Of a stretch of DNA of 64,000 nucleotides, positions 10,049-46,700 are shown piece by piece. How positions within the stretch are numbered: the stretch's first letter is position 1; each line of letters begins with the position of its first letter. The DNA comes from a virus, in the IMG/VR virus record IMGVR_UViG_3300032322_002033, positions 30,075 through 94,074 of that record. One strand, 5' to 3'. The notes under the pieces are model-generated. The model saw only the letters and a list, made by a program, of their open reading frames with translations. It ran no database searches and had not been told where the DNA came from. The position numbers and the translations under genes were made by a program.

Positions 10049-11806
10049 ATGGCTCAACAGAATATTAATCAATATAATTTTAAAAAATGGTTTATCAAAT
10101 CGGTTCCAAAAAATAACGATTTAAGTCTGGCGTCGGATGAGGTAGACTTTAATCAAGAAGTTATTTTTTCTACAGAGTTGATAGGGTTAAATGATGGTAA
10201 TCGATTACCTATACATTTTGATTTAAACAATTCGGGCAGTTCTCAACTGTTTACAATTAATTATGGTGATTATTACACAGGTAATACTCTTGTATCTTTA
10301 AATTATTATAACCCTAATAATGACAATTTAAATTGTTATACCTCATCGACATTATGTGACATAGGTTTAACAGGTGTTGATAATGGTTTAACTACTCAAA
10401 TATCAGGTGAAACCCTGTATTATACTATGGGGGTATATACTGGAGATACAAAATGGGATAGATACCATTATGATAGAAGAATGAAATTAATTCCTGTGTC
10501 TTATGGTACTAACGAACTAGTAGAATTAGTACTAACTTCAGATATTAGTGCCGGCTCAGTTATTGTGAATTATGTTTTTTCAGCAAGCACAAATGTTAAA
10601 ACTAATGTCTCAATATCATTTACTCAGTCAATTGGTAGGGAAGACAATACTCCTCTAGTGGTTACTACAGGGGTTACAATTTTTTCAGGAACATCAACAG
10701 GGTCAACAACTGTTGTGTTTGATGCGAGTTTTTCTAATTTAAATCGAACAAGTAGTTTTGAAAATGTGACAATATCGGGAGTTAAATACACACAACCCAT
10801 TGTTCTCAAAGAAGATACAAAATTCGAAGTACCTGTGTGCGAACAATTTTTAACTAATGAATTGAGTAATATTTTAACAACTGAAAATAGTGATAATATA
10901 ATTACTGAACTTGATGGTTGTTATAATTGTTATTCTGGATTACAAACATTAAATGTCGGATATAGAACTGGTGCAATTGTTTATAATAGCGTTGATAACA
11001 CAATTTACGTGGCAGCGGTAGAAAGCCCATATGTTTTTATAATTGACCCTTTAAACTTTACTGTTTCTGATACCGTAACGTTAAGTCAATCTTCTTCGTA
11101 TTATAATTATATGGCTTATTATTCAGGAACAAATTCAGTATATGGTAGTTATTTGTTTAGTGATAACACAATTGGTGTTGTTTCATCAAACACTGAAGAT
11201 AGTACGTTATCAATTTTTGTACCTAGAGGATTAACTGTACAACCAAATGAACAAAGATTATATGTTGGCGGGACAGGTAGGGTTAGATATGTCGATTTAA
11301 ATACTCTAACAACACATACCGGTGTCTCATTAGGCTCAGCATCATTCGAATCAGTTTATAATAGTGTTGACAATACAATATATTTTGCAAAATATATTGC
11401 AGGCCAAGTTGCAGTTTACGATTGTTCAACAAGTAATGTAACTACCAATATTACTGTTGGGAAAACTCCATATAACTTACAATTTAATCCATTACTTAAT
11501 GTTGTATATGTACTTAATGAAGGTGATGATAGTGTTTCGGTAATTGATTGTAATACAAATATAGTAATTGCAACAATTACAGGGATGACTAACGTGTTAT
11601 CAATTTTGTATATACCTAATACGACAAAACTTTTAGTTAGTAATCTAAATGGAGTTGTTTATAAAATAAATTGTTCTAACAACACAATTACTTGTTCTCA
11701 GGATTTAGGTACTAATATACCTCAAATGACATACAATCCAAATGATGGGTTTGTATATGTGAGTGATTATAACGAAACAGCAACTATGAGAAGATTCATA
11801 CCGTAA
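10049..11806 (+). CDS. Structural protein with C-terminal YVTN/YncE-type beta-propeller
   Basis: Repeats YNSVDNTIY, ITVGKTPY, VYVLNEGDDSVSVID; N-terminal half S/T/G-rich. Confidence 0.7.
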   Translation: MAQQNINQYNFKKWFIKSVPKNNDLSLASDEVDFNQEVIFSTELIGLNDGNRLPIHFDLNNSGSSQLFTINYGDYYTGNTLVSLNYYNPNNDNLNCYTSSTLCDIGLTGVDNGLTTQISGETLYYTMGVYTGDTKWDRYHYDRRMKLIPVSYGTNELVELVLTSDISAGSVIVNYVFSASTNVKTNVSISFTQSIGREDNTPLVVTTGVTIFSGTSTGSTTVVFDASFSNLNRTSSFENVTISGVKYTQPIVLKEDTKFEVPVCEQFLTNELSNILTTENSDNIITELDGCYNCYSGLQTLNVGYRTGAIVYNSVDNTIYVAAVESPYVFIIDPLNFTVSDTVTLSQSSSYYNYMAYYSGTNSVYGSYLFSDNTIGVVSSNTEDSTLSIFVPRGLTVQPNEQRLYVGGTGRVRYVDLNTLTTHTGVSLGSASFESVYNSVDNTIYFAKYIAGQVAVYDCSTSNVTTNITVGKTPYNLQFNPLLNVVYVLNEGDDSVSVIDCNTNIVIATITGMTNVLSILYIPNTTKLLVSNLNGVVYKINCSNNTITCSQDLGTNIPQMTYNPNDGFVYVSDYNETATMRRFIP

Positions 11807-11839
11807 AAAATAAAATATATTTATAAATAAAATTAAAAA

Positions 11840-46400: not shown

Positions 46401-46700
46401 GTTAGAAGATTATTACTACAAGCTCGTAAGTTGATTTCGGCAGTTGCAGTTAGATTGTTGTTTGAACAAAATGATTCAGTCGTTAGACAACAATTCTTAG
46501 ATGCTGTGAATCCTATTTTAGATAGTATTAGACGTGACAGAGGTCTCTATGACTTCCGAGTTGTTGTCCAAAATACAACTGAAGATTTAGATAGAAATCA
46601 ATTAGTTGGTAAAATTTATTTAAAACCAGTTAAATCTTTAGAGTTTATTGATATTGAATTCTTAATTACACCGACAGGTGCATCATTTGATAATATTTAA
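43464..46700 (+). CDS. Contractile tail sheath protein 2 (paralogue)
   Basis: Same sheath motifs as 40139..43360 (SPGVYTSE, PWFATAGYTRG, WGNKTL, LNVRRLL, FEQND). Confidence 0.95.
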   Translation: MASKVYVSPGVYTSERELSFISQSIGVTTLGLAGETLKGPAFEPIFLTSYDDFQTYFGGLSVEKFVNTQLPKYELPFIAKQYLQQSNQLFVTRVLGLSGYDAGPSWTISTVANPDYSTLKVWPPTQGNFRLFTFSGNTGGTVNYYLTGEDTFNHNQINTFSGSPFYSKFDKVYTKFDGGTSTIRQDITALLTSIFLDNSLSATTTGVYGSVSASTPSTDIFSTLTNYTNHYDVPNLLLTGWTNTDRLNDAWYYAGFDIKNDGTYSGVSGYWTIRTCTNPSDPYCFRSSGIGSFTGMCTFNHIFFSGNSYTDYNDLVVATLRSRGKTQYTSTLHGPQYQVTADTASFIGTGAYSGVTQNPFSTFVISGSDKSNNVFSFETSLDINNANYISKVFGTSNFEKDSVQVPLFVEERYQNLLTYGYNKGYIRGLNTDFQYLPESRNKNQESIGYYLQQYQSPESPWVVSELRGNLVYQLFKIISIPDGNSANRQVKVSIANISFQYGTFDLLVRDYYDTDANPVIIEKFTKMSMDSSQSNYIAKRIGTSDSEYTIQSKYIMVEVNPDAPFNALPCGFEGYRTRTYSTLTSPYVIYKSKYDTYGEEIFNPPFGSTQGDDTVFSQGDNVRRTYLGISDTIGYDSDFYDYKGAYNDPSYNWCSEVTPTKWQKITKGYHMDINASAVTIANEYSNSGDPKFVCGNASFNSEPEDSSSPYYNLFSRKFTFLVNGGFDGWDIYNERRTNSDSYILGASGYRSGQLAGCTRYPTSTGWGAFRPITYNDNTTDYGNTDYYAYLIGVQTFANPEVTNINVFATPGIDYVNNQQLIVQTIDMIENDRADSVYVVTTPDFDILQPSSSLDNLIYPRDAVSNLENSAIDSNYTTTYYPWVLMRDTSNGSQIYLPPTAEVCRNIALTDNIAFPWFATAGYTRGLVDAVRARKKLTLTDRDVLYTGRINPIATYNDSGPIIWGNKTLQVNASSLDRLNVRRLLLQARKLISAVAVRLLFEQNDSVVRQQFLDAVNPILDSIRRDRGLYDFRVVVQNTTEDLDRNQLVGKIYLKPVKSLEFIDIEFLITPTGASFDNI

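Follow-up and report, generated by a model that had tools for sequence, protein, structure and literature searches.

A tetrapeptide enriched in virion proteins of an uncultured T4-like jumbo phage with a GT60 gene cassette: a candidate mark of virion O-glycosylation

The hydroxyproline of Skp1 is a known acceptor of glycosyltransferase family 60 (GT60), phage glycosyltransferases with roles in modifying the host envelope or DNA are known as well, and self-glycosylation of a tailed-phage virion has, to our knowledge, been documented only for some mycobacteriophages. GT60 enzymes initiate mucin-type O-glycans on threonines of polypeptides (PMC8724618), and the GT27 and GT60 families have a DxH metal-binding motif instead of DxD (PMC7185993). 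Our literature search found no paper linking GT60 enzymes to phages. Here we describe a stretch of 64,000 nucleotides ("the window") of IMG/VR virus record IMGVR_UViG_3300032322_002033, in which a GT60 gene lies among genes for virion proteins rich in the tetrapeptide [ST][GA]xT ("the motif"), and weigh whether this motif marks sites glycosylated by enzymes of the phage. The window comprises bases 30075 to 94074 of a 94-kb contig (CheckV completeness, 32%), and coordinates are window positions unless "contig" is stated. With a GC content of about 30%, it encodes two T4 gp18-type sheaths, a tail tube, a baseplate hub, and a family-B polymerase, and a gp23-type capsid protein gene lies just upstream of it. 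Because of these T4-type tail genes, the gp23-type capsid protein, and relatives with complete genomes of 290 to 322 kb, we take the contig for a fragment of an uncultured T4-like jumbo phage, and the window is, judged by its gene content, the tail and fiber module of that phage. The clade is abundant in metagenomes (>7000 protein matches; >560 IMG/VR contigs), and many of its members come from those of freshwater type.

Several described systems resemble the one considered here. The general protein O-glycosylation of Bacteroidota, which uses the sequon D-(S/T)-(A/I/L/V/M/T), is periplasmic and transfers a lipid-linked glycan to exported proteins; like our candidate, it recognizes three to four residues of exposed, folded proteins, a sequon that shows up as an enrichment in the targets, whereas the phage system has soluble enzymes and no export signal. 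The autotransporter heptosyltransferases TibC and AAH, which act on the beta-helix repeats of TibA and AIDA-I, hyperglycosylate Ser/Thr of repeated beta-structure in a fiber-like surface protein within the cytoplasm, as is proposed here, but belong to another enzyme family and use another sugar. The protist GT60 enzymes of Dictyostelium and Trypanosoma cruzi (PMC8724618, PMC7185993) share with the phage protein the PF11397 domain, the DxH motif, and the lack of a ricin-like domain, and relatives of the phage place the gene beside Thr/Pro-rich, mucin-like proteins. The phage enzyme differs in that it would be soluble in the bacterial cytoplasm, its activity is predicted from sequence, and its contig has no Thr/Pro tract; no short sequon has been described for the family. 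For cluster F1 mycobacteriophages such as Che8, virion glycosylation has been described (Freeman et al. 2023, as cited in PMC11256854 and PMC12801897), and, going by those citing papers, this is a tailed phage whose structural proteins receive glycans from glycosyltransferases that it encodes itself, as we propose here; the host group is another one, and the targets described in those papers are capsid proteins, while our candidates are fibers and sheath inserts with a defined short motif. Chloroviruses and giant viruses (PMC5408694, PMC9614988) likewise encode many soluble transferases and sugar-nucleotide enzymes, do without the secretory glycosylation of the host, and use sites outside N-X-S/T, but in these viruses, which infect eukaryotes, the glycans are N-linked to the capsid, and here the candidate is an O-linkage on a bacteriophage tail.

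Over-representation of the motif in virion proteins

The first-pass annotation had reported the motif at high density in structural proteins, and a recount returned the same 9 occurrences in the 164-aa protein (14621-15115) and 8 in the first 88-aa repeat of the 24996-26918 protein. Relative to shuffles of each protein (2000 for the 164-aa protein), the motif was about 4- to 5-fold over-represented in the fiber, sheath-insert, and neighboring virion proteins (Table 2). When all 8000 patterns of the form a-b-x-c were scored in the fiber block, TGxT ranked first (64 against 8.1 expected), SAxT second (30 against 2.8), and SGxT fourth (25 against 6.2). After removal of the two tandem-repeat fibers, SAxT (26 against 2.8), TGxT (33 against 6.1), and SGxT (22 against 5.5) were the top three but for one minor pattern. 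Thr was favored over Ser at position +3, TAxT was weakly enriched, and position -1 was mostly I, Y, L, F, or V, while reversed or permuted orders of the motif residues showed no enrichment. Since codon usage at the motif sites equaled the background, selection acts on the protein, and an origin of the motif at the DNA level was ruled out.

The carriers had been called unrelated, which does not hold for all of them. The 23192 and 24996 proteins contain 88-aa tandem repeats encoded by a common 264-nt repeat, so they are partly nonindependent; the 26918, 28325, and 29760 proteins look paralogous, and the 11840 and 14621 proteins share a C terminus (both judged by eye). The two sheaths, both intact, share 62% of their residues from end to end. 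The tail tube (47640), the 650-aa protein at 49119, and the polymerase had no motif and the 36509 protein had one, in agreement with the earlier counts. The three sites in the C-terminal third of the 38823 protein were found as well, but neither its label "gp15-like" nor the label "tape measure" for the 650-aa protein was confirmed.

Both sheaths match phrog_23 (E values of 1e-59 and 6e-55) as well as PF04984 and PF17482, and an AlphaFold2 model with a predicted local distance difference test score (pLDDT) of 90.1 has the T4 gp18 fold and matches T4 sheath chains at an E value of 2e-23. The proteins contain 9 and 8 motifs (2.8 and 2.4 expected), all of them within residues 135 to 680, so that 8 to 9 sites fall in the inserts, where about 2 would be expected, and the conserved core at the N and C termini is free of them, just as had been noted. 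Among 74 sheath homologs there were 638 sites against 218 expected, again with none in the C-terminal core. In these homologs and in the family of the 12859 protein, the sites are conserved columns at which Ser and Thr interchange, Gly and Ala interchange, and x is free. The eight sites of the sheath model lie in a hairpin turn, in coil before a strand, in loops, and at helix ends, and such mixed contexts suggest that the sheath sites are not one structural element. At the four well-aligned positions 340, 353, 366, and 673, the motif was present in 64 to 75% of close homologs and in 13 to 25% of distant ones, and its scarcity in the latter indicates that the fold does not require it. G001, a relative with a complete genome, seems to have a single best match for both sheaths.

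The GT60 cassette, the sugar island, and their distribution

The identification of the 15175 protein as GT60 within a transferase cassette was upheld by its Pfam match (Table 2) and by a family search of its own genome. Its DxH motif (D93-S94-H95) is invariant in 12 homologs, and it has no hydrophobic segment, which points to a soluble protein. On these grounds it is a genuine soluble GT60 family member, for which alpha-GlcNAc transfer is predicted. It heads a five-gene transferase cassette within the fiber genes, and the pair of GT60 and HtrL-like gene is conserved as far as Xanthomonas phage XacN1, where the homologs are 48% identical (GT60) and 42% identical over 554 aa (18526 protein). GT60 has thousands of metagenome homologs at 70 to 79% identity. 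Relatives in IMG/VR were collected by alignment queries, as single-sequence queries with GT60 and P0157 gave none, and 80 GT60 loci of the clade plus 18 further loci around XacN1-type GT60 genes were fetched. The 80 loci share a conserved order of GT60, 1 to 9 variable genes, the HtrL-like gene (a gene of the 18526 type being present in essentially all), and a homolog of 20220, while the genes upstream are hypervariable.

On the minus strand, a sugar island of about 11 kb (contig 22769-33541, that is, to window position 3467) covers the left end of the window and continues for about 7 kb upstream of it. The minus-strand genes of the window's left end and of the 7 kb beyond it encode a UDP-galactopyranose mutase, an epimerase/dehydratase, a GFO/IDH/MocA oxidoreductase, a hexapeptide acyltransferase, two methyltransferases, and about eight transferase-like proteins, GT8-, GT15-, and RXYLT1-like genes being among those of the island, which adjoins genes for a dUTPase and an exonuclease. 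Almost no homologs of the island, only scattered weak matches, were found in the complete clade genomes G001, G003, and G004, and the island is therefore strain specific; it has the look of a hypervariable, O-antigen-type locus. The 3464-4930 gene occurs in the clade only and is the sole transferase distributed like the motif in our sample, which makes it, as a reader of the motif, a lead and nothing more. A clade-conserved pair of GT2 and GT4-like genes upstream of the window was ruled out in that role, as both genes are kept in the motif-free sister clade. No hydrophobic segment was seen in any window transferase, and no flippase, polymerase, or lipid-carrier family was found among the proteins scanned with Pfam.

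We then compared the four clade genomes with GT60 (our fragment and the three complete genomes) with XacN1 and with six GT60-free genomes, namely T4, Mel-JY01, P-SSM2, immuto, and two complete phages of the sister clade (Table 1). All four clade genomes had 5 to 12 significantly enriched open reading frames (ORFs), and none of the six GT60-free genomes had a genuine one, the only candidate, in P-SSM2, being rejected as an artifact of collagen-like GPT repeats. Relatives without the cassette thus do not show the motif density of the clade. The sister clade was reached via motif-poor sheath homologs, and PF11397 was found in none of its 8 complete genomes. The two fetched whole have about 30 core genes in common with this phage and a capsid protein 50% identical to its own, and their observed-to-expected ratios were 0.96 and 1.26; neither has a significant ORF or a Thr/Pro tract. 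The genomes of the sister clade (G005-G012; loci L288, L307, L309, L316, L327, L330, L332, and L353) measure 327 to 393 kb at 26 to 39% GC, several have direct terminal repeats, and their sheaths are longer still, up to about 1480 aa. The motif therefore tracks one clade only, and it is missing both from GT60-free relatives and from distant GT60-bearing phages. The predicted co-occurrence of motif and GT60 accordingly stood within the clade (four of four genomes, against none of the six lacking GT60) and broke down at XacN1 and the 18 other GT60 loci.

Table 1. Motif and Thr/Pro-tract content of the genomes compared
Genome	GT60	Motif observed/expected in S/T-rich ORFs	Significant ORFs	Thr/Pro proteins
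Own fragment	Yes	5.3	8	0
G001	Yes	3.95	8	3
G003	Yes	2.1	12	12
G004	Yes	0.6 overall	5	6
XacN1	Yes	0.84	0	13
T4	No	0.92	0	0
Mel-JY01	No	1.74	0	0
P-SSM2	No	1.51	1 (artifact)	0
immuto	No	1.52	0	0

A neighbor with a long Thr/Pro mucin-like tract accompanied GT60 in 61 of the 80 clade loci, and a motif-significant ORF was present in 43. The contig itself (32% complete) contains no Thr/Pro tract in any of its six frames. In XacN1 (AP018399.1), the 13 proteins with long tracts of the PT(V/P)T type account for 2094 residues, with 258 PTxT against 26 expected; no discussion of these tracts was found in the literature searched.

Candidate explanations of the motif

We favor the explanation that soluble glycosylation enzymes encoded by the phage itself work in the cytoplasm. 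GT60 as initiator and its HtrL-like partner, both retained even in distantly related jumbo phages, would act together with three variable transferases encoded between them, the strain-specific island would make unusual nucleotide sugars, including UDP-galactofuranose, and the exposed virion proteins would be O-glycosylated before assembly. Hydrophobic-[ST]-[GA]-x-T would then be a lineage-specific surface motif marking acceptor threonines on folded domains of fibers, sheath inserts, and neighboring proteins, while the Thr/Pro linkers of the relatives would be the classical mucin-type acceptors of GT60 itself. The motif could be read by GT60 itself, if its specificity has broadened, by one of its partners in the cassette, or by the 3464-4930 transferase, which is restricted to the clade. 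Motif statistics, enzyme family, and phyletic patterns are direct observations, from which we infer every chemical step. Glycosylation of virion proteins by phage-encoded enzymes we regard as probable, and the chance that the motif marks acceptor sites within such a system is somewhat less than even. It is doubtful that the fullest form of the proposal is right, in which a transferase of the clade recognizes hydrophobic-[ST]-[GA]-x-T in the bacterial cytoplasm as a genuine O-glycosylation sequon, and a glycan coat made of strain-specific sugars from the hypervariable island covers folded sheath, fiber, and capsid domains. If this were so, a sequence-defined coat of the phage would be a viral analog of an O-antigen locus, the glycans would bear on protease resistance, on evasion of recognition by hosts and grazers, and on surface adhesion of large environmental phages, and glycoengineering in the cytoplasm would gain the motif as a short, transferable tag.

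Several observations weigh against reading the motif as a glycosylation mark. The main rival is a purely structural origin, in which a lineage-specific block used in beta-rich fiber repeats and in inserted surface domains would have spread through duplication and the exchange of modules; the GT60 cassette would then modify Thr/Pro linkers only, and this phage would have lost these linkers or would encode them in the two thirds of its genome that the contig does not cover. In the fibers of relatives, the motif occurs four times within a conserved unit of about 35 aa (e.g., LPLSGGTVTGxT...ISAxTY), and it recurs in paralogous proteins at conserved positions, position -1, and often +2 too, being hydrophobic, as beta-structure would give. 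An AlphaFold2 model of the 12859 protein from 26 sequences reached a pLDDT of only 38.8. GT60 lineages outside the clade do without the motif: the whole XacN1 genome has 67 sites against 80 expected, despite its GT60 and HtrL-like partner, and the 18 XacN1-type loci have 48 against 58. What accompanies GT60 in both lineages is the Thr/Pro tract, found in mucin-like proteins that are 40 to 47% Ser plus Thr and yet depleted of the motif (e.g., 1 against 5.4 expected). Since the motif is confined to one clade, its correlation with GT60 amounts to a single evolutionary event. Outside the virion proteins, two comparisons pointed in different directions: non-virion ORFs of the clade had 0.82 of the expected number, against 1.29 in the six GT60-free genomes, with the forward order the most depleted of 12 permutations, but among reciprocal-best orthologs (67 against 64 motifs) this depletion vanished. 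A structural origin is nevertheless at odds with other results. The motif is not general to phage fibers, as the six GT60-free genomes stayed at 0.9 to 1.7 times the expectation; Gly and Ala replace each other at the same columns; the sheath sites lie in varied secondary-structure contexts; the same sheath positions carry other residues in most distant homologs; and the carriers seem to be different types of protein, i.e., sheath inserts, a capsid insert, the Cys-rich 12859 family, and fibers. We consider it a real possibility, toward which we do not quite lean. If it holds, a tetrapeptide can become 5-fold enriched on the virion surfaces of one lineage with no modification involved, and sequon-type leads call for corresponding caution. 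Searches of the fiber repeats against cultured phages by tblastn gave no match, possibly through low-complexity masking. The string LSGGTxTG was absent from T4, XacN1, Mel-JY01, immuto, and P-SSM2, and no paper was found that describes it as a common fiber motif of cultured phages. Searches of PDB sequences with GT60, the 38823 protein, and the 164-aa protein returned nothing usable.

The original model went further than the glycosylation system that we favor, in that it made [ST][GA]xT the acceptor sequon of the 15175 GT60 itself, with the neighboring transferases extending the GlcNAc into a coat on fibers, sheath, and neck. It draws on the position of GT60 inside a block of motif-rich genes, on the joint presence of motif and GT60 in the clade and their joint absence from the sister clade, and on the preference for Thr at +3, as expected of Thr-directed GT60 enzymes (PMC8724618). 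Against it stand the pair of GT60 and HtrL-like genes in XacN1 and the 18 loci, where there is no enrichment, the motif-depleted Thr/Pro tracts that adjoin GT60 in most clade members, and the known GT60 acceptors, which are disordered Thr-rich tracts and not a four-residue sequon (PMC8724618). The specific link from GT60 to the motif was hence not supported by the comparison of the two lineages; that GT60 is the reader is unlikely, and the model in its exact form is likewise improbable. The transferases might instead act on an envelope glycan of the host (in superinfection exclusion or lysis control) or on DNA, the motif being unrelated to them. The island does resemble a polysaccharide locus (Glf, epimerase, oxidoreductase, acetyltransferase, and methyltransferases) and adjoins the dUTPase and exonuclease genes, but the window transferases are without a hydrophobic segment and the flippase, polymerase, and lipid-carrier families did not turn up among the proteins scanned with Pfam; moreover, all characterized GT60 enzymes have polypeptide acceptors (PMC8724618), and the cassette lies among fiber genes, its relatives next to mucin-like proteins. 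A role on host glycan or DNA in place of the virion thus seems very unlikely.

Gene architecture of the fiber block

The features of the window are collected in Table 2. The listed start of ORF 29760 gives a strongly hydrophobic N terminus that overlaps the preceding gene; the true start is probably the Met near 29877, and with that start the protein has no membrane anchor.

Table 2. Features of the window, with numbers of [ST][GA]xT motifs observed and, in parentheses, expected from shuffles
Position	Strand	Assignment	Motifs
184..909	-	GT2-like gene, sugar island (Pfam)	
906..1592	-	DUF707, sugar island (Pfam)	
1582..2685	-	UDP-galactopyranose mutase (Glf), sugar island (Pfam)	
2682..3467	-	Gene without family match, sugar island	
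3464..4930	-	Glyco_tranf_2_5 transferase (PF13712-type), sugar island (Pfam)	
10049..11806	+	Virion-type; N terminus similar to start of 12859 family in relatives; C terminus beta-propeller-like	7 (1.35)
11840..12820	+	Fiber-like; C terminus matches tail-protein family phrog_17312	6 (1.6)
12859..14616	+	Cys-rich virion protein, kept across clade	9 (0.8)
14621..15115	+	Fiber-like, 164 aa	9 (1.2)
15175..16422	+	GT60 polypeptide-GlcNAc-transferase homolog; PF11397 E 1.2e-71, 242.5 bits (cutoff 21)	
16419..17135	+	GT-A, GT8-like nucleotide-sugar transferase, lead only; Atlas structure TM 0.79, feature score 0.96; no Pfam match	
17110..17973	+	HtrL/YibB-like, lead only; Atlas feature score 0.97, 25/30 matches	
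17933..18529	+	Weakly GT2-like; PF00535 E 1e-4, just below cutoff	
18526..20193	+	HtrL_YibB domain, PF09612 E 5e-15; C-terminal half without domain match	
20220..21574	+	Two small virion-type genes, conserved	
21577..26918	+	Three fiber proteins: 21577, 23192, 24996	12 (2.2), 25 (4.4), 36 (4.3)
26918..31415	+	Three fiber-type proteins, paralogous-looking by eye: 26918, 28325, 29760	6, 9, 9 (1.6-1.8 for 28325 and 29760)
38823..39875	+	Gene upstream of sheath genes	3, all in C-terminal third
40139..46700	+	Two T4 gp18-like sheath paralogs (40139-43360, 43464-46700)	In inserted domains only

Across 10049-14616, most relatives fuse the N terminus of the 10049-11806 protein with the 12859 protein in one gene, which here appears to have been split by a beta-propeller C terminus and by the fiber gene 11840-12820 between the halves. 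The 20585-21574 protein has a 137-aa N-terminal domain, ending in DLPCC, in common with that of L091 10639-11571. In relatives such as G001, a Thr/Pro tract follows directly after this shared domain, where the protein described here has a short Pro/Val linker, and unrelated C-terminal domains come next; proteins of this type thus have an adaptor-linker-head architecture with exchangeable heads. Some clade members encode collagen-like G-x-y proteins near GT60, for example, L046 1820-2737 on the minus strand, with GTS, GSS, and GVS triplets, and in an S/T-rich protein of G004, the reversed pattern T.[GA][ST] exceeds expectation 6-fold.

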